Shown here: piece by piece, positions 8,614-57,067 of the stretch | How positions within the stretch are numbered: the first letter of the stretch is position 1 | Layout: the number at the start of each line of letters is the position of its first letter | From: a virus | IMG/VR virus record: IMGVR_UViG_3300045988_183612 | Direction: 5' to 3' (one strand) | Length of the DNA stretch: 64,000 bases | Notes under the pieces: model-generated | Databases searched by the model: none | The model's input: only the letters and a program-made list of their open reading frames with translations | What the model was told of the DNA's origin: nothing | Position numbers and translations under genes: made by a program

Positions 8614-8646
8614 TTATTGTGTAAATAAATATAAAGGAGAATAATT

Positions 8647-10980
8647 ATGAGTTCTAAAAAACAACCACTTTATAATGATGATAAAAATATTCCACTAAAA
8701 AAAAGGAAAAATCATCTTTTAACCATATTTAAAATTTTTATATTGATTATTATGATAGTCATATTATTATCTTTAATATCATTATCAGTATTTTATATTA
8801 AATTTTACAGTAAATTCAAATTGGCACAGGAAAATGCATATGAGTCATTACAAAATATGAATCAAGATGAATTTAATAAAGAACTGAATACATATTTTTA
8901 TTATGATGATGGCACATTAATGGCAGCTAATATTAACGGCTCTTATGAATATGTTAATATCAGCGATGTCAGTGATTATATAATACAAGGATATATTGCT
9001 GTGGAAGATAAGAATTTCTATATTCATAAAGGTATTGATGCTAAAGCATTGTTACGAGCTTCTTTGGCTTATATAAAGAATAAAGGAAAAATAACTCAGG
9101 GCGGCAGTACAATTACACAACAGGTTGTAAAAAATATTGTTATAAAAAATTCAGACAAAACAATAGATAGAAAACTTACTGAAATGATAGCATCACTTGA
9201 AATGGAAAAATCATATTCTAAAGAACAAATACTTGAAATGTATTTAAACTCTAATTTCTATGGCAGCAATTGTTACGGAATTCAGGCAGCTTGTAAATAT
9301 TATTTTGGATGTGATGCATCTGATGTAACAATATCTCAGGCCGCAATGTTAATAGGTATTTCAAATGCCCCTACAAAATATAATCCTGAAACAAATTATG
9401 AATTAGCAATATGTAAAAGAAATCAAGTCCTTAATACAATGTATAATCAGAAAATAATTACAGAAAAACAATACAATGAAGCATTAGAAGATCCTCTTGA
9501 TTTAATTTTATATAAAGAAACATCTGATTTACCAACATCTTATGAATTTTCATATACACTTAAATGTTCTATTGAATATCTTATGGAAATAAATGGATTT
9601 AATTTTAAATACCTTTTTGATTCTTCAGAAGATGAGCAAGATTATATTAATCAATATAATAAAATATACTCTAAGTACAAAGAAGAAATATTAACTGGAG
9701 GATACAGGATATATACTTCAATAGATAAAGATAAGCAGCTTGAGCTATTACAAATTTCAAAAAATGTTTTATCACAATATGATAACAGCTTATCCGAGGA
9801 TGGGCGGCATCTTCTTCAAACATCATCCATGTGTATTGATAATGAAACTGGATATGTTAGAGCAATTATAGGTGGACAAGAAGATAATGAATATATAAAT
9901 AGAGCATATCAATCTCCTAGACAACCAGGCTCTTCCATTAAACCAATATTAGATTATGCTCCGGCTTTTGATATTTTAGACTATCATCCATCATCTATGA
10001 TTTTGGATTCTCCACTTGAGGGTAAATATCAGCCTAAAAATCATGATGGATATTACAGAGGCAATATTTCAGTAAGAACAGCTTTATTACAATCAGTCAA
10101 TACAACGGCTGTTAAAACATTAATGAATGTTGGAATAAATAATTGTTTAGAGTATTTAAATAAAATGCACTTTTATAATATTTCATATGAAGATAATAAT
10201 AATGCTGCAATTGCCATAGGTGGTTTTACAAATGGTGTAACAGTAGAAAACATGACTAAAGCATACAATGCATTAGCTAATAATGGTAAATACAATAATA
10301 ATACATGCATCAAACATATGTTGCGTCAAAATGAAGAAATATATCAAAATAAAGAAGATATTCAAGTATATAAAAAAGGCACCGCTTATATGATGACAGA
10401 TTGTTTAATTTCAAATTTTACAGAAGGATACGTCAAAAATTATCAAATAGATAATCAGATTTGTGCAGGAAAAACAGGAACTACAAATGATAATAAGGAT
10501 TCCTGGTTATGTGCTTATACACCATATTATACAACATGTGTATGGACCGGATATGATATTCCTAAAAATTTTGATAATGGTTCAGCAATATGTGGAGAAA
10601 TATGGGAGCAGTTTAATGAATATTTGCACCAGAATTTAGATAATAAGGAATTTGAGAAACCTGAAACTATTTATGAGCATTATATTGACTGGGAAGGGAA
10701 AAAATGTAATTATAATTCTGGTAAAAAAGATTTTTTTCAAATCGATTTTCCTAATTATGAAAATGCCAGTTTTTGTTACAAAAAAGCATATGATGCTTTA
10801 AAAGAAGCTGAGAATACTAATATTTCAGATTATAAAACTGCTAATACTGTTATAAAAAGTCTTGATGATGTTATTATCGATAAGAATGCATTAACTGATC
10901 AACAAGAAATTGATGCTATAAATAAATACTGGGATGAAATATATAATAATATTTTAATAAAAAGACAACAGTTTGGATAA
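8647..10980 (+). CDS. class A penicillin-binding protein (GT51 transglycosylase + transpeptidase)
   Basis: N-terminal TM anchor. GT51 motifs [29 protein letters not shown]...ILEMYLN. Transpeptidase motifs SSIK (SxxK), SVN, KTGTT. Confidence 0.85.
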
Positions 10981-11353: not shown

Positions 11354-11383
11354 ATAATTTTGAAAATTAGAACTATTTGTTTA

Positions 11384-11429
11384 GCTACCTTAAAATGTCT
11401 TTATAGACTTTTTAGGGTAGCTTTTTTTG
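11384..11429 (+). terminator. rho-independent terminator
   Basis: GCTACCTTAAAA...TTTTTAGGGTAGC stem plus TTTTTTT. Confidence 0.55.
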
Positions 11430-11461
11430 TTCGCACATTGCGAAGAAAGGAACGCTGCACT

Positions 11462-12109
11462 ATGGCAGAATTAAATGAAATTATGTCAGACAAAAAGGCT
11501 GGCACATATAAAAAGGATTTTTTTAATGTAGCATCATATATCGAAAAATTTTATGATGCAGAAGAATATCTTTTCAATTTCGAAGCTAATGATTTGGTTG
11601 AAACCAGATCAGGAGCAAATGATTATGTTGAGGAACATACTCCTCATGTGCTACAACATATAGCTCCAGAAATTTCATGGGCTATAAATAAAATTTCTGA
11701 AGCTACAAAAGAAAAGAAAGGAATTAAAGGCGCTAAGAATGGTACCTTTCATCCTACATGGTTTGATTCATTAGAAAGTGCATCTGAAGCATTAGAGAGA
11801 GTTTTAATTGCTTCAAATAATACTTCTATTATTTCTAAAATTCAGAACTGGTGTGAGGATAGAGATATTTATTACAACGACAAAAGACATAATCGTTTAG
11901 TTATAGATATAGTATCTAATACGGTTATAGGAAAAGGAATTGTAAAAGGTACAAATTATGATATTCCTTTTGACTGTCATGGACTTCATATTGTTTTAGA
12001 ATATACAATTTCTAAAAAAGATGGAGAATTTGCAGTCTATGATATGTACCCATATTTCACAGAAGAGGATTGGAGCATAATTAAAAAAGCTAAAAATAAA
12101 AAATCTTAA
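11462..12109 (+). CDS. hypothetical protein
   Basis: Start chosen at MAELNEIM after a hairpin terminator at 11384..11429 (AAAGGAAC RBS). The ORF track extension from 11360 runs through the terminator. Confidence 0.5.
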   Translation: MAELNEIMSDKKAGTYKKDFFNVASYIEKFYDAEEYLFNFEANDLVETRSGANDYVEEHTPHVLQHIAPEISWAINKISEATKEKKGIKGAKNGTFHPTWFDSLESASEALERVLIASNNTSIISKIQNWCEDRDIYYNDKRHNRLVIDIVSNTVIGKGIVKGTNYDIPFDCHGLHIVLEYTISKKDGEFAVYDMYPYFTEEDWSIIKKAKNKKS

Positions 12110-13723: not shown

Positions 13724-14092
13724 ATGGTAACAACAGCAACAGTGTCAACAAATGCAATAAATAAGACAAATAAGACAATAAAGGTAGGACTCAAAAGATG
13801 TCCATTTTGTAGAAAGTGGGACTCAATGAGTATTATCCCTATTAAAACTAATGGCTTTAAGATTACTTGCGATTACGCAAAAGGAGGCTGTGGAGCCAGC
13901 GGTGGAATGGGTAAGACTAAAGATGAAGCAATAAAAATGTGGAATCTAAGAGTTCCTATTGATCATTTACGTCATGATGTTTCTGAAAAATCATATCATA
14001 ATAGTTTAATGAATTGTGAAGTAATTCCTTCTACGGAAATATATGATGCATTAAATGATGAACAAGAAAAATATTTAGAAATGAATATTTAA
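13724..14092 (+). CDS. Lar-like restriction-alleviation zinc-ribbon protein
   Basis: Zinc-ribbon motif CPFC...C..C, followed by DEAIKMWNLR, which matches the Lar-family C-terminal AIxAWNxR signature. Confidence 0.45.
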   Translation: MVTTATVSTNAINKTNKTIKVGLKRCPFCRKWDSMSIIPIKTNGFKITCDYAKGGCGASGGMGKTKDEAIKMWNLRVPIDHLRHDVSEKSYHNSLMNCEVIPSTEIYDALNDEQEKYLEMNI

Positions 14093-24349: not shown

Positions 24350-25444
24350 ATGGGAAGACCACCAAAGAATATTAATGCCGAAACACAGGGTAACGAATCA
24401 ATTTCAAATGACAAATTAAAAGCACTTGATGCTGCAATGTTAGAAATTGAAAAGACTTATGGTAAAGGTTCTGTTTTTAAATTAGGTGATACAAAGAAAT
24501 TAAATGTTGAAACATTTTCATCAGGTTCCTTAGCACTGGATCAGGCTTTAGGCGGAGGAATTCCAAAAGGAAGAATTATAGAAGTATTTGGCCCGGAATC
24601 AAGTGGTAAAACAACTTTAACCTTGCATATGATTGCAGAAATACAAAAAAATGGTGGAATTGCCGGGTTTATTGATGCTGAACATGCATTAGATCCTGTT
24701 TATGCTTCTAATTTAGGTGTGGATATAAATAATTTATATATTTCACAGCCAGACAGCGGAGAACAGGCTTTAGAAATAGCAGAAACAATGGTAAGATCCG
24801 GAGCTTTAGATTTGGTTGTAATAGATTCTGTAGCAGCTCTTGTACCTAAGGCAGAAATTGATGGAGAAATGGGGGATTCACATGTTGGATTACAAGCAAG
24901 ACTTATGTCGCAGGCTTTAAGGAAACTGACTCCCGTTGTAAGTAAAAGTAATTGTTCAGTTATTTTTATTAATCAGTTAAGAGAAAAGGTTGGAATTATG
25001 TTTGGCAACCCAGAAACAACAACTGGGGGACGAGCATTAAAGTTTTACTCTTCTGTAAGAATTGATGTACGAAGAATTGAGTCAATTAAGGAAGGCGGAG
25101 CCATTGTTGCTAACAGAACAAAAGCAAAGGTAGTTAAAAATAAAATAGCTCCTCCATTTAAGGAGGCAACATTTGAAATTTCATTTGGTAAAGGTATAGA
25201 CAAGAATGGTGAAATAATTGATTTAGCTGTTGAACATGGATTTATCAATAAAACTGGAGCTTGGTTTACAGATGTAGAAGATTCTAGTTTAAGATGGCAG
25301 GGCAGAGCAAATGCTAAATTATATATAGAAGAGCACTCGGAATATAAAGATAAATTAGAAACTTTAATCAGAAAAAGACTTAAGGGAGAAGAAAATATTA
25401 CATCCTTTACCGAAAAAAATATAAAAAATGTAATTGATGAGTAA
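24350..25444 (+). CDS. recA: RecA recombinase
   Basis: Canonical RecA along the whole length: [39 protein letters not shown], and loops L1/L2. Confidence 0.95.
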
Positions 25445-31223: not shown

Positions 31224-32798
31224 ATGGGAATTGAAGTAACGATTGGAATTGTAGTAGCGGTGGTTGTAGTATTAATTGCATTATTATTTGCAAGTTATAT
31301 TAAGGCCCCGACAGACAAGGCACTTATTGTATCAGGACTTAGAAAGACACCTAAGTATGTAATTGGAAGGTCATCACTTAAGATACCATTTTTACAGAGA
31401 GTTGATAAACTTGATTTAAAGATGATTTCTGTTGATGTCAAGACAAAGGAATCAGTACCAACAAATGAGTATATCAATGTTAATATTGATTCTGCTGTAA
31501 AGATTAAGATTGGTTCATCACCTGAAATGCTTGGAAAAGCGGCAAGTAACTTCCTTAATAAAAATTCAGATTATATCAGAGAATCAGTTGTAGATGTACT
31601 TGAAGGTAATGTCCGTGAAATTATAGGACAGATGAAGCTTGAGGATATTGTACAGGACAGAAAGTTATTTGCTGAAAAGGTACAGGAGAATGCTGCTCCT
31701 GATATGGAAAGAATGGGTCTTGAAATTGTAAGCTTTAATGTTCAGAATGTTACAGATGAAGGTAATGTTATTGAAAATCTTGGTATTGACAGGGTTGTAA
31801 GTATCAGTAAGTCAGCACAGATATCAAGAGCTGAGTCTGAAAGAGATATTGCAGTTGCAAAGGCTAATGCTGAAAAGCAGGCAAATGATGCAAGGATTGA
31901 AGCTGAGACAGCTATTGCAGAAAGAAATAATGAACTTGAGATAAAGAAGCAGGAATTAAAGAGAGCAGCAGATGTCAAGAAGGCTGAAGCTGATGCGGCA
32001 TATGAAATTCAGCAGCAGGAACAGAGAAAGACAATTGAAATTACAACTGCCAATGCTAATATTGCAAAGCAGGAAAAGGAAATTGAATTAAGAGAAAAGG
32101 AAATCACTGTTAAGGAAAAGACACTTGATGCCGATATCCGTAAGCAGGCTGAAGCTGAAAAGTATGCAGCACAGCAGAAGGCAGATGCAGAACTTTATCA
32201 GAGACAGAAGGAAGCAGAAGCAAAGCAGTTTGAAATTCAGAAGCAGGCTGAAGCTAAGAAATCACAGGCAGAAGCAGACAGATTTGCTAAGGAACAGGAA
32301 GCTGAAGCAGTAAAGGCACAGGGCTTTGCAGAAGCAGAGAGTATTAAGGCAAAAGGTGTTGCTGATGCTGAAAGTATTAAGGCAAGGGGATTAGCTGAAG
32401 CTGAAGCTATGGAGAAGAAAGCAGATGCAATGGCTAAGTATGGTAAGGCTGCCATGACTGAAATGATTATCAAAGTACTTCCAGAGATGGCAGGAGCTAT
32501 TGCAAAGCCATTAGAAGCCATTGATAAGGTAACAATTATTGACAGCGGTAATGGAGAAACCGGAGTAGGTTCATTTAGCAGTAATGTACCATCAGTACTT
32601 GCAAAGACAATTGAATCTGTTAAGGAAACAACCGGTTTTGATCTTACAGAAGTAATGAAGGCTAATACATATGATGCCAAGACAACAAAGAATGTGAACT
32701 TTACAGGTATTCCAGAAGATGCTGACCCGGAGATTAAGGTAACTGTAAAGAATGTTCCTGAAAAAGTGTCTAAGTCAGAAAAGAATTCTACTAAGTAA
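31224..32798 (+). CDS. flotillin-like SPFH/band-7 protein (YqiK-like)
   Basis: N-terminal TM helix, an SPFH core, and a long A/E/K-rich flotillin-type coiled-coil repeat region. Confidence 0.8.
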   Translation: MGIEVTIGIVVAVVVVLIALLFASYIKAPTDKALIVSGLRKTPKYVIGRSSLKIPFLQRVDKLDLKMISVDVKTKESVPTNEYINVNIDSAVKIKIGSSPEMLGKAASNFLNKNSDYIRESVVDVLEGNVREIIGQMKLEDIVQDRKLFAEKVQENAAPDMERMGLEIVSFNVQNVTDEGNVIENLGIDRVVSISKSAQISRAESERDIAVAKANAEKQANDARIEAETAIAERNNELEIKKQELKRAADVKKAEADAAYEIQQQEQRKTIEITTANANIAKQEKEIELREKEITVKEKTLDADIRKQAEAEKYAAQQKADAELYQRQKEAEAKQFEIQKQAEAKKSQAEADRFAKEQEAEAVKAQGFAEAESIKAKGVADAESIKARGLAEAEAMEKKADAMAKYGKAAMTEMIIKVLPEMAGAIAKPLEAIDKVTIIDSGNGETGVGSFSSNVPSVLAKTIESVKETTGFDLTEVMKANTYDAKTTKNVNFTGIPEDADPEIKVTVKNVPEKVSKSEKNSTK

Positions 32799-36020: not shown

Positions 36021-36125
36021 TAATATATATAAACTTTTTTAAGAAGGAATTATAATAATAGACTTAATAGAAATTAAAAAATCATATCAAAATAAAAATA
36101 AAGCAATTTGGAGGTCAACAAAATA

Positions 36126-36992
36126 ATGATTAAACAAATTACAAAGATTATTGGAATAGTATTTGCCTTTCTTATTACTCAAATTGTATGTACATTGGGC
36201 GTATTTATTTTTAAATTGTTTTCTGATTCACAATGGTATGATAATTTATATGTATGTATAGAAACAGGTAATTTACTTTCATATAGTTATCTTAGTATGC
36301 TCAGTGAATTAATTATGCCTGCATTATTTGTTTCTGACATTATAATACTTGAGTTTGTTGTGCTTAAAGAATATAAAGTTAATAAATCAATCATATTTAT
36401 TTCAAAATTATCATTAAAAGATGTCAAGACATTTATTTTAACAGGCATTATTATGAATTTTTTAGCTTCTGTGGTAATAGATTCCTTACCTAATAATTTA
36501 GTTTCTAACTCATATAATTCTTTGATGAATGTTGCTGTAACCGGAAATTGGCTTCAAGTACTCTTAATAACAGGTGTTATTACGCCAGTTGTTGAAGAAT
36601 TAATATTTAGATACGGTATTACAAAAATAATAAAGCAAAACAAATTCTTTAAGAAACCAGATGTAAGCTCAATTTATATATCAGCTTTCGTTTTTGGATT
36701 AGTGCATTTTAATATTATTCAAAGCACTTATGCATTTATTTTCGGTATTATATTAGCCTATGTATATATAAAAACAGATAATTTATTGCCCTCTATTTTA
36801 ATTCATATTGGAGTTAATGCAAGTAGTGTATTGTATTCATTTATGCCTGTTATGTTGCAAAATATTTGTTTAATCGTAATGAGTATTATATTTTTCATAA
36901 TTGTTATAAGAAATATTTTAGTAATAAGAAATAACAATTTAAATTCTAATGTAAATAATTTTCTGTCATATCTTCTTTATCAAACAAAATAA
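36126..36992 (+). CDS. CPBP-family intramembrane metalloprotease (CAAX protease/Abi)
   Basis: Multipass membrane protein with EELIFRYGI, FGLVHF and HIGVN motifs. GGAGG RBS. Confidence 0.75.
   Translation: MIKQITKIIGIVFAFLITQIVCTLGVFIFKLFSDSQWYDNLYVCIETGNLLSYSYLSMLSELIMPALFVSDIIILEFVVLKEYKVNKSIIFISKLSLKDVKTFILTGIIMNFLASVVIDSLPNNLVSNSYNSLMNVAVTGNWLQVLLITGVITPVVEELIFRYGITKIIKQNKFFKKPDVSSIYISAFVFGLVHFNIIQSTYAFIFGIILAYVYIKTDNLLPSILIHIGVNASSVLYSFMPVMLQNICLIVMSIIFFIIVIRNILVIRNNNLNSNVNNFLSYLLYQTK
36961..36971 (+). promoter_or_regulatory. TTCTGTCATAT-family motif
   Basis: TTCTGTCATAT, 43 bp before the methyltransferase ATG 37006. It lies inside the 3' end of the CPBP gene. Confidence 0.55.
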
Positions 36993-42992: not shown

Positions 42993-44786
42993 ATGTCAAT
43001 GTTTGAACATGTAAAAATTGGAGAATTAACAAAAAAGGTTATTGAGTCAGGAGTTACAGTGTGTGAACATAACCATCCAGGAGGCTCTTTGTTTGATGCC
43101 GTAGATGAACCTAAACGTTATTTAGATGCTGCATTTAATGCAGGATATACTAAATTTGCTGTTACGGACCATGCATCATTTTCAGCAATGCAAACATGTA
43201 TTGATTACGCTAAGAAAATAAGTACTGAGGAACATCCATTTAATATCATTTATGGCGTAGAGGCTTATATTGAAGTGCCACCATTTAAGATAAATGAACA
43301 GATTGGCCATATGATTATGTTAGCCACTTCAGAAAGAGGCAAGCATATTATTGATAAGTTAAATTCTAAGGCTTCTGAAAAAAGAATGGGAAAGCCTGTT
43401 ATTACAATATCAGATTTAAAGAAATATAACTTTAACGGTGATATAATAGCAACTTCAGCTTGCGTTTCGGGTGCACCAGCTCTGCAATTATTATCAGATG
43501 ATGTTTTGGATAAAATGATTAACAGAGAAAGAAAAGCACAGCAGCATACTACTGAAAAAGACGAGCTAGTTATACATGATTGTATAAGTCCTGATGATAA
43601 AGAATATCTTTCAGCTAAAGATGAATTTGAAAGGGTATCGGCAGATTTAGATGAATTGATTAATATTCGTGATTCCAAGGAACTTAAATCAGAAAGAACA
43701 CAGATTTCAAGAAAATTAAGAGATGCAAGAAAGTGTTTAAATGATGATGATCCAGAGCTTATTAAACTGATTAACGAATATGAGGAGATAAATAATAAAA
43801 TTCTGGAAGCTAAAGATAAAATTCCTAATGTCAGAAAATTAGTTAATGCTAAGAAAGCCGAGTTGAAGGATATAAGTCTTAAGGTAGAGGAATACATTAA
43901 TCATGAAAATAAGATACAGCATTATGAATCATTAAAGAAAAGCCCAATAGAATTAATGTCTGAAGCAGAAAAGACAATGCTTTTTTATCAGGAAATTTTT
44001 GGAGCAGGTAATTATTACATTGAAGTTCAGAATCATGGGCTTGAAATGGAAAGCAGAACATATCCTGTGTTAGCTCAGTTAGCAAGGAAGCATAATATTC
44101 CATTAGTTGCTGCTAATGATGCACATATGGCAGATAATTCTGATAGAAGTATTGATATGCGTAATGTAGCTAAATTTTTAAGATTTATTAAGATAAGTGA
44201 GTCGGAATCAGATAAAGAGTTATATGTAAAGACACCTTATGAACTTGCTCAGGCCTTATCAGCTATATTAACAGATGATCAGGTTGCAGAAGCACTCAAT
44301 AACTTAAATGTAATTGGAAAAAGATGTGCTTATATTCCAGAAAAATCTAATCATTATCCAGTATTTGATAAGAATAAGGATTCAAACGAATTATTAAGAT
44401 CTGAAGCAATTAAGGGAATTAATTGGAGATATCCTAACGGAAAAGGATGGGATGAAGAACATCAGAAACGAATGGAATACGAACTTAATATTATCATTCA
44501 GATGGGCTTTGCCGATTATCATTTAATTGTAAAGGACTTCCTGGAATATGGAAGAATTTGTGGATTAGTACCTATGGATAAACTATCAGAAGTACCTTTA
44601 ACAATTGAAGGTGCAAAAGAGTATGTTAAGGCTCACAATTATAATACCGGAATTGGAATAGGCATTGGAAGAGGTTCAGGTGCCGGTTCATTGGTTACAT
44701 ATTTACTTGGTATTACCGGAATTGATCCATTTAAGTATAATCTGATTTTTGAACGATTCTTAAATCCAGAAAGAGTAAGTATGCCT
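42993..44786 (+). CDS. dnaE: DNA polymerase III alpha (DnaE-type) exon 1: PHP domain with coiled-coil insertion
   Basis: PHP motifs [33 protein letters not shown]...[10 protein letters not shown]. Exon ends ...[13 protein letters not shown] at the conserved DnaE SMP|DIDIDF junction. Read-through into the intron gives a spurious tail to 44834. Confidence 0.8.
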
Positions 44787-45211
44787 AAATATATTGGGCG
44801 TTCAGCGTGGACTCTAACTCAGAGGTGTGCTTAATATTTTATTATTAAGTGCTAACGGTAGAAGTTGAATAAGACTGCTATATAAAGTGTCACAACAGGA
44901 TATATAGCTTAACCCATAGACGAAGCAGCTTCGTAAGAGAACCTACGGTCCTAATATTTTTATATAAAAGATATTGAAGGATAGCAGGCGATACCGTGCT
45001 AAGATTATAAATAATATTATATAAATAAAAAATTGTTCGTATATAATATTATTTATTTTAAAGTGTAACGACTATCCTTTTTAAGGAGTACAACTGAGAA
45101 TGGTTACAGTTGGAAGTGCGTTGAAATATAATATTAATAATATTATATTGAGATATAGTCTAATCCCACTTATACAAGTGTTAAAGTACTACGAAAGTAG
45201 GGGTATATTTG
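44787..45211 (+). other. group I self-splicing intron (no ORF) in dnaE
   Basis: 5' exon ends in U and the intron ends in G. Conserved core elements AACGACTATCC (R, P7 5' strand) and GAGATATAGTCTAA (S, P7 3' strand) are in the right order. Flanking exons join into the continuous conserved DnaE sequence. Confidence 0.75.
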
Positions 45212-45967
45212 GATATCGATAGTGATCTTGCTCTTGGAGTAAGAGAAAAGACAATTGAGTATGTAAGAGCTAAATATGGTAGTGAAGCTGTTGTTGGAAT
45301 TATTACAGAATCAAGACAGCAGGCTAAAGGTGCTATCAGAGATGCTGCAAGATATTATGGAAAGAAAGCCTATGATGATGAAAAGAAATTCTTATCTTTA
45401 GGAGATCAGATTCGTAAGAAAGTGCCTGCTAAAGCAACTAATTTTGAAGATATTGTTGGCATGAAAGATACTAATAGGGTTGATGAATTAGGCATTAATA
45501 TTCAGGACAGCGTTTCTTTGTTAGATTTTTTAAAGGATGAATATAATAGTAATCCAGATGCTATTTCTATTCTTAATATTGCAGCTCATTGCGAAGGTAT
45601 GCTTACGACATACGGACAACATGCCGCAGGTGTTATTATTTATGATAGTAATGATGTTACTGATTATATTCCTATTAGAGATGGAAAAAAGGGAATTAAA
45701 ACTACAGAAATGGACATGATTCAGTGCGAAGCTAATGGATTATTAAAAATGGATTTTCTTGGATTAAAAACTCTTACAATTATTACTGACACACTCAGAA
45801 TGATTCAGAGAGATACAGGAGAAGTAATTGATGTAATGAATATTCCATTAGAGGGTCCTAAAGCTGATAAGGTATACAAAGAAGTATATGCAAAAGGAAG
45901 AACTAAGAATGTTTTCCAGTTTGAGTCAGCCGGTATGAGGAATAACCTTAAGAAGTTATGCTCATAG
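45212..45967 (+). CDS. dnaE: DNA polymerase III alpha exon 2 (palm region)
   Basis: DIDSDLALGVREKTIEYVRAKYG...AIRDAARYYG, MDFLGLKTL and VFQFESAGMRNNLKKL match the DnaE palm region. Ends in TAG-TGA, followed by a terminator. Confidence 0.8.
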   Translation, partial: DIDSDLALGVREKTIEYVRAKYGSEAVVGIITESRQQAKGAIRDAARYYGKKAYDDEKKFLSLGDQIRKKVPAKATNFEDIVGMKDTNRVDELGINIQDSVSLLDFLKDEYNSNPDAISILNIAAHCEGMLTTYGQHAAGVIIYDSNDVTDYIPIRDGKKGIKTTEMDMIQCEANGLLKMDFLGLKTLTIITDTLRMIQRDTGEVIDVMNIPLEGPKADKVYKEVYAKGRTKNVFQFESAGMRNNLKKLCS

Positions 45968-51638: not shown

Positions 51639-53324
51639 ATGAATAAAACAGGTATTGAAGATTTAATAGCAATGAATGCTTTATATCGTCCTGGTCCTGA
51701 AAAGTTTATACCTGATTTCATAGAAGGTAAAAAGGATGCATCTAAGATTAAATATTTATGTCCTCAATTAGAGCCAATTTTGTCAACTACTTATGGACAG
51801 ATAGTTTATCAGGAACAGGTAATGCAGATTGTTCGTGATTTAGCAGGATATACATGGGGGCGTTCTGATTTAGTCCGTAGAGCTATGTCAAAAAAACATC
51901 AGGATGAAATTGATGCTGAAAGACACACTTTTGTATATGGCAATGCTGATACTAAAAAAGAAAATGAAGCATTAGTACCAGGTTGTATTTCAAATGGAAT
52001 ACCAGAAGAAATTGCTCATAAAATCTGGGATGCGATGGTTGATTTTGCTAAGTATGCTTTTAATAAGTCACATGCCTCTGCTTATGCTGTTACATCATAT
52101 TGGACTGCTTTTCTTAAGTATTATTATCCGGCTTATTATCTTACAAATGTAATAAATCATACTGATAAGATTGATGAAGTCGCTGATGATATTAGTGATG
52201 CTCTTGATTTTGGAGTAAAGGTATTGCCTCCGGACATTAATGCTTCAAATTTACATTGTGATGTTGTAGATGGAAATATTTTGTATGGTCTGAGTAATAT
52301 TAAGAATGTTGGAGCAGAAGCAGCTAAAATTATTGAAGATAGAAATGTTAATGGAGAATATTCTGATATTAAGGATTTTATCAAACGAACAAATATTAAT
52401 GCAGAAGCATTAAGTTCCTTAATTAAAGCAGGTGCTTTTGATTGCCTTGGTTATACAAGAACAATGATATCATTAGATATGATTTGTATGAAAGAAATTC
52501 AGGATACAATCAAGAAAATCAGAGAGAAGAGTAAGTTTATTGAAAACGCAAGTAAAGTTATTGAATTTGTGGAAGATTATATTGATCTTGATGAGTTTAA
52601 GGAAAAAATTTCAGAAGAAAATATTTCCTTTCAAGTTACTTCAAAAAAGATGCCAACTAAGGATTCCATAATTAAACGTATCAATTCAGCTAAGACAGTT
52701 ATAGAAAGCTTAGAAGATGATCTTGAAAATATAGATATTGATTATGTAGAAGATGATTTAGGTCAGATTCTAAATGATGAAAAAGAAGTGTTAGGTGTTT
52801 ATATTACAGGGCATCCAATTGATGAGTATAATATTTATACAGATCCCATTTCTGATATTTCAACAGAAGTTAATGATGTATCTGGTATAATTAAAAATCT
52901 TGTTATAAGAAAGGACAGAAATGGATACGAATGGGTAACTTTTGAGGTAGAAGATAAAACAGGTTCTATTAATGGTGTATGTTTTTCTAAGGATTATGCA
53001 AATATTAGAGACTTACTTGTTAATGATGCTAAATTATGTTTATCAGGGAAAATTCAAGTAGATGATTTTAGATCTTCAGATGACGAAACTGTATATCAGA
53101 TTATTGTTAAATCTGTTAAACCTTTAAAGAAAAATAAGTCTTCATATAGATTTATTTGTACTGTTTCCGAAGTAAACGATGTTCTTGATTCTATTAATGA
53201 ATATCTGGTGGACGTTGATGGAGATTATTTATATTGGCTTGATTCAACAACTGGAATTGAACATTTATGTAAGAAATTCATTAACCCTGATATGTCAGCC
53301 CCTTCAATAGTACGCAAATGCTAA
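51639..53324 (+). CDS. dnaE: DNA polymerase III alpha C-terminal piece (fingers, HhH, OB) as a separate ORF
   Basis: ALYRPGP and NKSHASAYAVTSYWTAFLKYYYP are DnaE motifs. Has its own motif (51593), AAAGGAGA RBS and ATG. The N-terminus abuts the end of exon 2 in the DnaE alignment. Confidence 0.8.
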   Translation: MNKTGIEDLIAMNALYRPGPEKFIPDFIEGKKDASKIKYLCPQLEPILSTTYGQIVYQEQVMQIVRDLAGYTWGRSDLVRRAMSKKHQDEIDAERHTFVYGNADTKKENEALVPGCISNGIPEEIAHKIWDAMVDFAKYAFNKSHASAYAVTSYWTAFLKYYYPAYYLTNVINHTDKIDEVADDISDALDFGVKVLPPDINASNLHCDVVDGNILYGLSNIKNVGAEAAKIIEDRNVNGEYSDIKDFIKRTNINAEALSSLIKAGAFDCLGYTRTMISLDMICMKEIQDTIKKIREKSKFIENASKVIEFVEDYIDLDEFKEKISEENISFQVTSKKMPTKDSIIKRINSAKTVIESLEDDLENIDIDYVEDDLGQILNDEKEVLGVYITGHPIDEYNIYTDPISDISTEVNDVSGIIKNLVIRKDRNGYEWVTFEVEDKTGSINGVCFSKDYANIRDLLVNDAKLCLSGKIQVDDFRSSDDETVYQIIVKSVKPLKKNKSSYRFICTVSEVNDVLDSINEYLVDVDGDYLYWLDSTTGIEHLCKKFINPDMSAPSIVRKC

Positions 53325-53436: not shown

Positions 53437-54348
53437 ATGATACTTAGTAACAACAACAGTAATATTAAGGAATTAAGAAATAAAAAAAATAAGCATGATT
53501 TAAATTCTTATATGGATTTTATGGCAAAAAACAAAATGAAAAGTAATTCTTTCTTTTCAAAATCAAAACAGTATATAAAGATTTTTATTCCATTTATTAT
53601 TTCTGTTTTTATAATTTTATTTTCTATGTTTATTGCAACATTTATAGACAGTCTATTAAATATGTATATGAATGATGCAGGAGGAATTTCAACTAAAATA
53701 GATTATGAAGGATTTCGATTAATTTACACAATATCAACATATACATTAATGTTTGTTATGTGCATTATTTGTATAAAAAGCTCATTTTACAATTATAAAA
53801 AAGATTTGTTTATGAAAAATAAATTAGTAGTAAATTGGAATTTTGTATTTTGTTTCATATTAACTTCTGTAATATTGCAGCTTATTTCAGGAATTCAAAT
53901 GCATTTTGTAAATGTATCAAATATTGATTATGGAAGTTTAGGAATAAAAACAATTATATCTACAATAATAGCAACTTTTGTGGCACCTATTATTGAGGAA
54001 TTGACTTTTAGATATATAATTTATGGCTATGCATATAAAGCAAGCAACAATAAATTATGTGCAAATATAATCCAAGCAGTTTTATTTGGAATAATTCATT
54101 TTAATTTTATTTTATTCCCTATATATGCTTTTGGCGGATATTTGTTAGGTGCTGTAAGAGATAAATATGGTATTAAACTTAGCAGCTTATATCATATTCT
54201 AATAAACTGTGTGGCATTAATACCATTTACGTTTTTTATAACAAATATATATTTACAGGTATGCATTTTAATAGTCTGCATAATGAGTTTAATTTATTTT
54301 GTAATTAAGTGTTTTGAAAATATCAATATAGAAATTAAGGAGCAATAA
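53437..54348 (+). CDS. CPBP-family intramembrane metalloprotease (second copy)
   Basis: IEELTFRYIIYG, FGIIHF. Multipass membrane protein. GGAGG RBS. Confidence 0.75.
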   Translation: MILSNNNSNIKELRNKKNKHDLNSYMDFMAKNKMKSNSFFSKSKQYIKIFIPFIISVFIILFSMFIATFIDSLLNMYMNDAGGISTKIDYEGFRLIYTISTYTLMFVMCIICIKSSFYNYKKDLFMKNKLVVNWNFVFCFILTSVILQLISGIQMHFVNVSNIDYGSLGIKTIISTIIATFVAPIIEELTFRYIIYGYAYKASNNKLCANIIQAVLFGIIHFNFILFPIYAFGGYLLGAVRDKYGIKLSSLYHILINCVALIPFTFFITNIYLQVCILIVCIMSLIYFVIKCFENINIEIKEQ

Positions 54349-55788: not shown

Positions 55789-56628
55789 TATATAAATAAA
55801 ATGCAGTTATCAATAGGTAGCTGTATTTTTTTATGATTACACTTCCTTTAAGTGTAATATGTCATACACCTTCTTCAAAGCCCTTCTATTATTTTCTTTT
55901 TCATTGATACGCTTTTTATTATTAAAATATAAAAATTAGAGCCTTATATAATACATTTGATTATTCCTTAATAGCGTTTTAAGACTTAATATAATAACCG
56001 CCAGAATATTATTAAGGATTAAAAGCGTATAACTATTATTGTTATATCCTTATACAATATCATTTATCAGCTTAATACATTTTGTGTTTATTTCCCTGGC
56101 AATTCCTTACCTGTCTCTAGCAAGCACTTCATTTATCCCAATTAATGCCTTTAATATACCAATAAATCATATAATTTTCTTATATATAATATATGATAAT
56201 TACAAAAATTATGATTACTAGATTCCTGTAAATCTATTCTTCGCCCTGCAAATGCCTTAGTAAGCCCAATAATCCCATTTCTGTCTCAATAGATGCATTC
56301 ATATACACTAATTCTTTCTTATTTGCTCTTAGATCTATTTCCTTTACTCTATCATTTCTATATATGTTCCCAGTAATTCCATTAATTAACTTTAGTAAAT
56401 AATAATTATATCCCATTAATCAGTTATATTTATTTTTCTCACTAATTATACAGTTTATTGTACCCAATTAATCCATATATAATTGCTAATATTACCAATT
56501 ACATGTTATCAAATTAACATTTTTTATCTCTTAAATCAGCATATAATAACTACATCATGGTATTATTCTGACACATATAAGGCATTTTATTGGCTATGCA
56601 ACGGATAATACATTACTACATATTGTTA

Positions 56629-56872
56629 TCATTATTACATTTATGTATTAAATATTTAGCTATATATTGTTAATTTTATTGCACAAATTTTTCTATTCTA
56701 TAACATAATGTTGTTAGTTTTAATGTATATTAAATCATATTTTATATCTATATATTGTTATTATTTTTGTATCTTAGCTATATTTTAATAAATCTTAAAT
56801 AACTATATATTGTTAATAAAGTTAACATATTAAACTAATATACAACAATAAACGTACAATATATTGTTATTA
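56629..56872 (+). repeat. iteron-like direct repeats TATATATTGTTA x5
   Basis: Copies at ~56629, 56665, 56752, 56807 and 56861. They lie inside a 1.2-kb ORF-free AT-rich region that also carries CCCAATTAAT repeats (56132, 56421, 56466) and TTATCCCA DnaA-box-like words. Confidence 0.6.
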
Positions 56873-57021
56873 TTTTTCCCAAGTAAAGGCATAGTATACC
56901 CAATAAAGTGCTTAGAAGAACACAAAAACGGGATATTTTAATAAATAAAAGGCATTTACATTTAGTTACTGACTTATTTTGATACACATCAATTATTTTA
57001 TGTAAAATAATAATTCATTTT

Positions 57022-57032
57022 TTCTGTCATAT
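57022..57032 (+). promoter_or_regulatory. TTCTGTCATAT-family motif
   Basis: TTCTGTCATAT, 44 bp before ATG 57068. Confidence 0.6.
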
Positions 57033-57067
57033 TAAAAATATAACTAAATAAAAGGAGAACTAATTAT

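Follow-up and report, generated by a model that had tools for sequence, protein, structure and literature searches.

A class A penicillin-binding protein gene on a probable giant plasmid-like element with a conjugation module from human gut metagenomes

Described systems and the locus under study

Inocles are giant circular plasmid-like elements of oral Streptococcus with sizes of 245–395 kb and a GC content of either 32% or 24%, all of which carry VirB4 and VirD4 (Kiguchi et al., 2025, PMC12340149). All Inocles also encode a bifunctional enzyme in which a transmembrane segment is combined with a transglycosylase and a penicillin-binding protein (PBP) transpeptidase, and its gene is one of the two universally conserved envelope genes of these elements (PMC12340149). 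They furthermore encode DNA polymerase III, RecJ, helicases, an exonuclease and a sigma factor, with open reading frames (ORFs) co-oriented with the GC skew, and they are missing from isolate genomes and from plasmid and phage databases, and rare in faeces (PMC12340149). Here we describe a class A PBP (aPBP) gene in a stretch of 64,000 nucleotides that is filed as a virus (IMG/VR record IMGVR_UViG_3300045988_183612; this whole stretch is termed the window in the following). We consider it likely that the carrier of this gene is a giant conjugative plasmid-like element, and that its product is an active aPBP anchored in the membrane, which would add peptidoglycan-synthase capacity to a gut Bacillota host.

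Compared by published description, Inocles are the closest described system, sharing the PBP architecture, VirB4/VirD4, the replication gene set and the low GC content with the element of the window. The latter differs from them by its gut source, by contigs of up to 731–760 kb, and by a RecA protein that is nearest to Lachnospiraceae. The Inocle marker InoC is a protein of about 454 aa with a PF13814 replication-relaxation domain (PMC12340149). No InoC-like PF13814 match was obtained among the ORFs of 350–550 aa in the window and its flanks, which together comprise about 95 kb and leave most of the element unseen. A literature search retrieved neither a gut counterpart of the Inocles nor a description of this element.

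The best labelled relative of the window PBP is the PBP1A-family protein of pCLK/pCLJ (39% identity over 669 aa, E = 1e-144), conjugative plasmids of C. botulinum and C. sporogenes of 240–275 kb. pCLK combines a full bifunctional PBP and a type IV secretion system (T4SS) with HD-GYP, sigma-factor, SPFH and primase genes, as does the element of the window. However, the PBP gene of pCLK follows FtsE/FtsX-like genes and not genes of cyclic diguanosine monophosphate (c-di-GMP) metabolism, and its product falls outside the PBP clade of the window. Membership in the pCLK family was rejected, as only 6 of the 78 window ORFs match the whole 267-kb plasmid in tblastn, and megablast of window positions 1–25000 against PLSDB gives no match. 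In total, tblastn with the window PBP matched 626 PLSDB records, mostly megaplasmids and chromids, inclusive of the pCLK/pCLJ family. Hodors are conjugative megaplasmids of 211–389 kb with a GC content of 44–47%, Rep_3 and multiple sortases; these similar gut elements were first filed as huge phages and were later shown to be megaplasmids (PMC12934698). Identity with the Hodors was rejected on the grounds of GC content (44–47% versus about 27%) and of gene content, as neither sortase nor Rep_3 genes were seen.

The penicillin-binding protein and its conservation

A preliminary description of the window, made from the sequence alone, had assigned to this locus a full-length class A PBP with the GT51 motifs, the SxxK/SxN/KTG triad and an N-terminal membrane anchor. 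Pfam profiles, an alignment of 56 homologous sequences and the predicted fold bear out the assignment of the enzyme, at exactly the coordinates given at that time (Table 1). The Transgly profile PF00912 matches with E = 1.2e-56 (191 bits versus a cut-off of 27), and the Transpeptidase profile PF00905 with E = 8.5e-23 (81 bits versus a cut-off of 22). The five GT51 motifs and both catalytic Glu residues are all present, and every catalytic-motif residue is invariant in the alignment. This applies to E120/D121/H127/G129 (EDxxFxxHxG), G152–Q159 (GGSTITQQ), R175-K176-x-x-E179 and K192/E197/Y199/N201 (KxxxxExYxN) in the glycosyltransferase domain, and to the SxxK, SxN and KTG motifs of the transpeptidase domain. 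The gene is intact, and by these features it codes for a full-length and apparently catalytically competent class A PBP.

Structural comparison agrees with this assignment. The AlphaFold2 model of the protein displays a mean predicted local distance difference test (pLDDT) score of 87.7, and its best fold matches in PDB by Foldseek are two structures of S. aureus PBP2 (3dwk and 2olv, E about 1e-35, about 635 columns), followed by A. baumannii PBP1a (3udf) and E. coli PBP1b, the top matches spanning E-values from 1e-35 to 1e-27. A sequence search of PDB likewise leads to solved class A PBPs. These proteins have the same two-domain fold and the same catalytic motifs as the window PBP, at 22–27% sequence identity. 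The window PBP has a C-terminal beta domain and helical tail of its own (residues 637–777), and is devoid of the UB2H/OB insertions of the Gram-negative PBP1b/1a. This C-terminal tail is the least conserved part of the protein and the shortest tail in the family. At the N-terminus, a Lys/Arg-rich tail precedes a hydrophobic stretch (approximately residues 24–51), which forms part of a long helix (residues 17–69) in the AlphaFold2 model, in agreement with the proposed membrane anchor. According to the positive-inside rule, the protein would be a single-pass membrane protein with extracellular catalytic domains.

Based on these data, we hypothesize that, once the element enters a cell, the PBP would insert into the host membrane alongside the PBPs of the host itself. 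Glycan strands would be polymerised from lipid II by its extracellular GT51 domain, and cross-links between the stem peptides would be formed by its transpeptidase domain. The element would thereby bring its own wall synthase, which may add to or modify wall synthesis of the host; the same role has been proposed for the bifunctional transglycosylase of the Inocles (PMC12340149). A report on C. difficile describes PBP1 as an aPBP that serves, in place of FtsW-FtsI, as septal synthase in a non-canonical divisome (PMC12539705). As an aPBP is thus the key division synthase in some Clostridia, an element-borne aPBP in a Clostridia host could touch an essential process. The window PBP is not an orthologue of C. 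difficile PBP1, and its best chromosomal-type homologues are only 40–45% identical.

The coding DNA of the PBP is 100% identical in 7 other metagenome contigs from different cohorts, and an eighth contig is 1 nt off. A variant copy (on contig L014) displays 18 synonymous versus 7 non-synonymous changes, together with a 1-nt deletion at nt 2151 by which only the last 60 aa are lost, downstream of both catalytic domains. Compared with homologues of 46–61% identity, synonymous sites are saturated (synonymous differences, pS, of 0.58–0.73) at a non-synonymous divergence (dN) of 0.31–0.49. Identity with the homologue on a related element (L011) amounts to 76% in the GT51 domain and 70% in the transpeptidase domain, compared with 51% in the linker and 45% in the tail. 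Saturation of synonymous sites at such dN values, with the catalytic domains as the most conserved segments, is what one expects of an enzyme under long-term purifying selection, and one element lineage has retained the gene down to approximately 46–61% identity.

An extra PBP on a transmissible, highly prevalent and nearly clonal element, the gene of which is 100% identical across cohorts, would also be compatible with recent selection. Beta-lactam tolerance may in this case be the selected function, in that a low-affinity PBP would continue to cross-link the wall while the PBPs of the host are acylated. However, the active-site motifs fully match the family consensus, no other resistance gene was seen in the window, and the relatives of 46–61% identity keep the gene, which makes it old in the element lineage and places it before the use of antibiotics. 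Moreover, the established low-affinity resistance PBPs (PBP2a, PBP5) belong to class B. We regard beta-lactam tolerance as a very unlikely explanation for the presence of the gene.

The carrier element, its relatives and its host

The window displays a GC content of about 27%, a steadily rising GC skew, and nearly all genes on the plus strand. The flank to the left of the window was read from two contigs (L014 and L025) which bear exactly the genes of the window. It encodes, in this order, PrgI, a VirB4-like ATPase (845 aa), a 246-aa protein, a 1288-aa protein without any Pfam or PHROG match, a VirD4-like coupling protein (982 aa), a 109-aa protein, a NERD protein and a 277-aa protein, which are followed by the relaxase at the beginning of the window. 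The best plasmid matches of the coupling protein are "VirD4-like, CD1115 family" proteins of Bacillota plasmids. The flank to the right consists of more than 10 kb of small one-strand ORFans, and long one-strand arrays of ORFans are present in the window, too. The window also encodes two UvrD-type helicases, RecJ, RecA, a CHC2 primase, a 5′-3′ exonuclease, an RpoD-like sigma factor, an orphan N6/N4 methyltransferase, a guanylate kinase, a DUF5688 protein and a YqeY protein. Searches with Pfam and PHROGs in the ~95 kb found no phage structural or packaging gene (terminase, portal, capsid, tail). No ribosomal or translation gene occurs in the same ~95 kb, which hold mostly ORFans without Pfam or PHROG matches, and no tRNA in the window.

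Because relaxase, coupling protein, VirB4 and PrgI are contiguous, and because no phage structural gene is present in the ~95 kb, we regard the carrier as conjugative and plasmid-like, and not as phage-like. The term "phage-like element" in the preliminary description is thus to be abandoned. Its placement of the PBP gene on a mobile genome, and not on an ordinary host chromosome, is retained: no boundary is found between 8.4 and 11 kb, and at least 9 independent metagenome contigs display one and the same gene order from the relaxase to the UvrD gene.

The preliminary description had thought of a PBP that remodels the wall during infection or sporulation, and the carrier would in this case be a huge phage or a prophage. 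The set of replication, recombination and sigma-factor genes, the one-strand arrays and the many ORFans do resemble huge phages, and a sub-threshold match to a group I intron is associated with a split dnaE gene (see below). The PBP itself has a distant full-length match, across GT51 and transpeptidase domains, to PHROG 33002 (E = 1.9e-46), and one other protein of the window strongly matches a PHROG of unknown function. The Microcystis jumbo phage MaAM05 carries an aPBP-like "mtgA" (30% identity over PBP residues 58–675), which is distant and a credible phage example. This is opposed by the conjugation genes contiguous with the window and by the lack of terminase, portal, capsid or tail matches in the ~95 kb. 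In addition, peptide patterns derived from the PBP retrieved nothing from IMG/VR, megablast of window positions 1–25000 gave no match in INPHARED (50,697 phage records) or PLSDB, and no class A PBP-like structure is contained in BFVD. The Hodors provide a precedent of megaplasmids misfiled as huge phages (PMC12934698). A phage or prophage nature of the carrier appears highly improbable to us.

Most of the 62 phage-database matches to the PBP are unverified contigs. Faecal contigs labelled "Bacteriophage sp." (36–40% identity) were rejected as a phage precedent, as they are unverified, 10–20 kb long, have a GC content of 38–44%, and share essentially only the PBP; one of them also gives a weak 24% match to HD-GYP. 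The statement in the preliminary description that carriage of such a gene by mobile genomes is rare is correct for genuine phages, considering BFVD and the unverified matches. It is not correct for large plasmids, considering the 626 PLSDB records and the presence of such a gene in all Inocles.

In a neighbour-joining tree of PBP homologues, the window PBP and the homologues P0002–P0007 form one clade (47–66% identity in the alignment), which is apart from the pCLK protein and from a chromosomal-looking group (context of P0015). On L011 (P0005, 62% identity), ParA, thymidine kinase and PIF1 genes are followed by HD-GYP, GGDEF and PBP genes and, downstream, by a gene for a PARP-like protein; identities with the window amount to 58% for HD-GYP, 57% for GGDEF and 77% for the PARP-like protein. 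On L041 (P0002, 67% identity), an HD-GYP gene and a phospholipase-C-like gene lie upstream of the PBP gene, and on L013 (P0007, 51% identity) the PBP gene is found together with genes for a PD-(D/E)XK nuclease, an LCP wall-polymer ligase and a 5′-3′ exonuclease. The contexts in a sister clade also resemble extrachromosomal elements. L035 displays a GGDEF-EAL gene directly upstream of the PBP gene and a YqeY protein which is 62% identical to that of the window. L036 encodes a stand-alone C-terminal DnaE piece, a CAAX protease, an RNase-A-like protein, SSB and a UvrD-type helicase, and L042 encodes RecD2-type helicases, TnpB and SSB. Taken together, a c-di-GMP enzyme is encoded immediately upstream of the PBP in 4 of the 9 extrachromosomal-element-like contexts examined.

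A further homologue (P0037), 42% identical, is encoded on a 230-kb contig (L023) which is likewise one-stranded and similar to extrachromosomal elements. Its neighbours are an RlaP nucleotidyltransferase, a CCA-adding enzyme, two signal peptidases and an RNA polymerase omega-like protein. This aPBP indicates that aPBPs recur on several distinct giant elements.

Sequence comparison shows that a broad range of related giant elements of low GC content (26–32%) have kept the aPBP. The reading that we consider likely includes that a family of giant low-GC conjugative plasmid-like elements has long possessed the PBP and passes it on by vertical inheritance. The recurrent c-di-GMP neighbours suggest that it takes part in an element-encoded module for the envelope or lifestyle, and it may be coupled to surface functions under c-di-GMP control. 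In the window, these neighbours are a membrane-bound HD-GYP phosphodiesterase and a membrane-bound GGDEF diguanylate cyclase, and a terminator-like hairpin separates them from the PBP gene (Table 1), which is consequently probably its own transcription unit. The hairpin most likely ends the upstream c-di-GMP operon. L011 displays a hairpin at the same relative position (9914–9936) with the same TTAAT loop and an entirely different stem sequence, and the difference between the two stems looks like compensatory change. No Rfam family matches the hairpin. The 279-nt region 5′ of the PBP gene gave no Rfam match at the gathering threshold, and at E up to 1 only matches of chance level. For lack of an Rfam match, we rejected a riboswitch (for c-di-GMP or another ligand) or other leader upstream of the PBP gene, the hairpin being better read as terminator of the upstream operon.

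The vicinity of the relaxase may suggest another function of the PBP, namely as a factor for conjugation or establishment, which would be expressed early from a leading region and would repair or rebuild the peptidoglycan, either where the mating cells join or after arrival in a new host. The PBP gene lies about 7.4 kb from the relaxase gene, on the strand and on the side expected of a leading region, and genes for a Lar-like protein, a methyltransferase, a primase and RecA are nearby in the same orientation. The Lar-like restriction-alleviation gene is consistent with plasmid establishment or a leading region. A perfect 18-nt palindrome (half-sites AAGTGTATA and TATACACTT) is present at 1262–1279, in the divergent region 1207–1312 between the relaxase gene and the first plus-strand ORF, and is a candidate origin of transfer (oriT). 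If this palindrome is the oriT, the leading region would comprise the plus-strand genes after it (PARP-like ADP-ribosyltransferase, c-di-GMP enzymes, PBP, Lar, methyltransferase, primase, RecA). However, both the oriT and the transfer direction are putative, and in relatives the PBP is not consistently near a conjugation module (ParA upstream on L011, other neighbours on L013, L036 and L042). Known Gram-positive T4SS use wall hydrolases, and not synthases. A role of the PBP in establishment is, in our view, quite unlikely.

Of the blocks of the metagenome collection, 156 list the exact PBP in their index, and 374–484 list its neighbouring genes. The PBP is found on contigs of up to 731 kb, and no contig above 1 Mb in these 156–484 blocks carries genes of the element. 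Every contig with a source stated in its record name is labelled as human gut metagenome, and none as oral. A search of PBP-derived patterns in the GTDB representatives (185,579 species) retrieved only an unrelated, 27%-identical match in Brachyspira. The full-length RecA of the window has its nearest named homologues in Lachnospiraceae (Table 1). Intermediate relatives of this RecA (80–85% identity) are present on other contigs of 150–309 kb. The exact RecA is found on 184 contigs, the longest of which has 689 kb, and an N-terminally shorter form (357 aa) on contigs of up to 760 kb. The hosts are probably human-gut Bacillota, and among these Clostridia/Lachnospiraceae. Because the PBP is about 40–45% identical to many aPBPs of Clostridia and Bacilli, both chromosomal-like and plasmid-borne, no specific donor lineage can be named from sequence search and tree.

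Some observations weigh against an active PBP on a conjugative plasmid-like element. Firstly, the protein narrowly misses the trusted cut-off of the NCBIfam model TIGR02074 (PBP_1a_fam; 477 versus 508.75 bits). As this score is just under the cut-off while the Pfam cut-offs are widely exceeded, we take the protein for a divergent subfamily member and not for a defective one. Secondly, the hairpin described above suggests that the PBP is not co-transcribed with the c-di-GMP enzymes, which leaves conserved adjacency as the basis for a functional link. Thirdly, about 95 kb have been seen of an element of at least 400–760 kb, neither a replication initiator nor a partition gene is present in these ~95 kb, circularity was not observed, and a ParA-like (ParA/CbiA) gene was seen only in the relative L011.

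The third point would also fit a chromosomal region. This could be an integrative conjugative element of very large size, with the PBP as wall synthase of the island, or the reduced genome of an uncultured organism related to Clostridia, with the PBP as wall synthase of the cell itself. Several window genes have a housekeeping character (RecA with 73% identity to Lachnospiraceae, the RpoD-like sigma factor, dnaE, the FloT flotillin, guanylate kinase), and contigs reach 0.69–0.76 Mb without circularity or rep/par genes being seen. On the other hand, the window is free of tRNA genes, and the ~95 kb, free of ribosomal and translation genes, are mostly ORFans and include a conjugation module that adjoins the window. 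No copy was retrieved by the PBP patterns from the representatives of 185,579 species, despite hundreds of metagenome blocks; the GC content is about 27% versus 35% in the one chromosomal-looking homologue context (L022), and the contigs do not exceed 1 Mb. A chromosomal location appears unlikely, and is kept under consideration because only part of the element has been seen. The plasmid-like element proposed here would presumably be extrachromosomal.

Further features of the window and significance

Table 1. Coordinates of the PBP gene, its domains and neighbouring features (positions in the window unless a contig is named)
Feature	Coordinates	Strand	Evidence and remarks
Mob_Pre (MOBV-type) relaxase	1–1206	−	PF01076, E = 3.8e-30; edge of a conjugation module continuing leftward
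PARP-like ADP-ribosyltransferase	4217–5503	+	PF00644, E = 1e-18
Membrane-bound HD-GYP phosphodiesterase	5878–7092	+	PF13487, E = 1.2e-38; HD and GYP motifs present
Membrane-bound GGDEF diguanylate cyclase	7235–8368	+	PF00990, E = 4.7e-32; GGEEF motif
Terminator-like hairpin	8568–8592	+	10-bp stem, loop TTAAT, T-run; between GGDEF and PBP genes
Ribosome-binding site AAAGGAG	8633–8639	+	7 nt 5′ of the PBP ATG; read from sequence
Class A PBP gene	8647–10980	+	777 aa plus stop, ATG start; Pfam Transgly and Transpeptidase; fold match to S. aureus PBP2
N-terminal membrane anchor (predicted), ~residues 24–51	8716–8799	+	After Lys/Arg-rich cytoplasmic tail; sequence reading, AlphaFold2 helix 17–69
GT51 peptidoglycan glycosyltransferase domain, residues 98–265	8938–9441	+	PF00912; catalytic E120 and E179
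DD-transpeptidase (penicillin-binding) domain, residues 396–636	9832–10554	+	PF00905; S429xxK432, S483xN485, K609TG611
C-terminal small beta domain and helical tail, residues 637–777	10555–10977	+	AlphaFold2 secondary structure; 45% identity to L011
Lar-like restriction-alleviation protein	13724–14092	+	PF14354, 28.4 bits versus cut-off 28.6; also in precomputed annotation
Full-length RecA	24350–25444		72–74% identical to RecA of Lachnospiraceae metagenome-assembled genomes (nearest named homologues)
Gram-positive conjugation module, left flank	L025 6808–14542; L014 13585–16533		

The PARP-like protein is 77% identical to its homologue on L011, which is above the values of the PBP (62%), HD-GYP (58%) and GGDEF (57%) proteins, and an anti-defence or host-modifying role is possible for it. 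Just downstream of the PBP gene, an ORF at 11360–12109 weakly matches PF18431, a bacterial RNase A-like CdiA-CT toxin domain, with a sub-threshold score of 24.9 bits; on the distant relative L036, a similarly weak RNase A-like match lies about 3.6 kb 5′ of the PBP gene. Further membrane or envelope proteins of the window are encoded at 31224–32798, 36108–36992 and 53437–54348, and comprise a FloT-like flotillin (346 bits, below the equivalog cut-off) and two CAAX/Rce1-like intramembrane proteases. An SPFH protein is likewise carried by pCLK.

The dnaE gene (Pol III alpha) is split into three ORFs at 42993–44834, 45209–45967 and 51639–53324. The splits fall exactly at boundaries of the Pfam profiles, namely at positions 102/103 of the NTPase domain and at positions 59/63 of the finger domain. 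The 374-nt spacer between the first and second pieces (44835–45208) contains the sub-threshold match to a group I intron (RF00028, 45072–45182, 23.6 bits, E = 8e-4), and the second and third pieces are 5.6 kb apart, with 7 unrelated ORFs in between. Where the GC skew dips, there is an ORF-free stretch of 1.3 kb (55789–57067). Within it, at 56605–56877 and upstream of the DUF5688 gene, 5–6 direct and inverted copies of CTATATATTGTTA are found in an iteron-like arrangement, which may mark an origin or an operator array.

As aPBPs on giant plasmid-like elements are already present in the literature, the gut carrier element, which may be undescribed, may be the more interesting lead. It is prevalent, is seen on contigs of up to about 0.7 Mb, and merits a description of its own, the more so as our searches of phage and plasmid collections, of IMG/VR and of the GTDB representatives did not retrieve it. 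As a tentative proposal, for which we see a fair amount of room for doubt, it may belong to a family, not described so far, of low-GC conjugative extrachromosomal elements of giant size (0.4 to more than 0.7 Mb) which are prevalent and nearly clonal in human gut metagenomes and represent the counterpart, in gut Clostridia, of the oral Inocles. In this scenario, the conserved PBP and the adjacent membrane-bound HD-GYP/GGDEF enzymes would form one element-encoded module, by which wall synthesis and surface lifestyle of the host would be rewired. The case also holds a lesson for classification, in that a window rich in replication genes and ORFans looks phage-like, while the adjacent T4SS and relaxase reveal its plasmid-like nature.

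Peptidoglycan synthases are usually regarded as core chromosomal genes and as fixed antibiotic targets. The gene described here is one more piece of evidence that a bifunctional synthase of their own is routinely present on giant plasmid-like elements of Gram-positive commensals. If the enzyme is active in its host, it could alter wall architecture, the anchoring of surface proteins, division, or the response to beta-lactams in abundant gut Clostridia, and such a trait could spread by conjugation.

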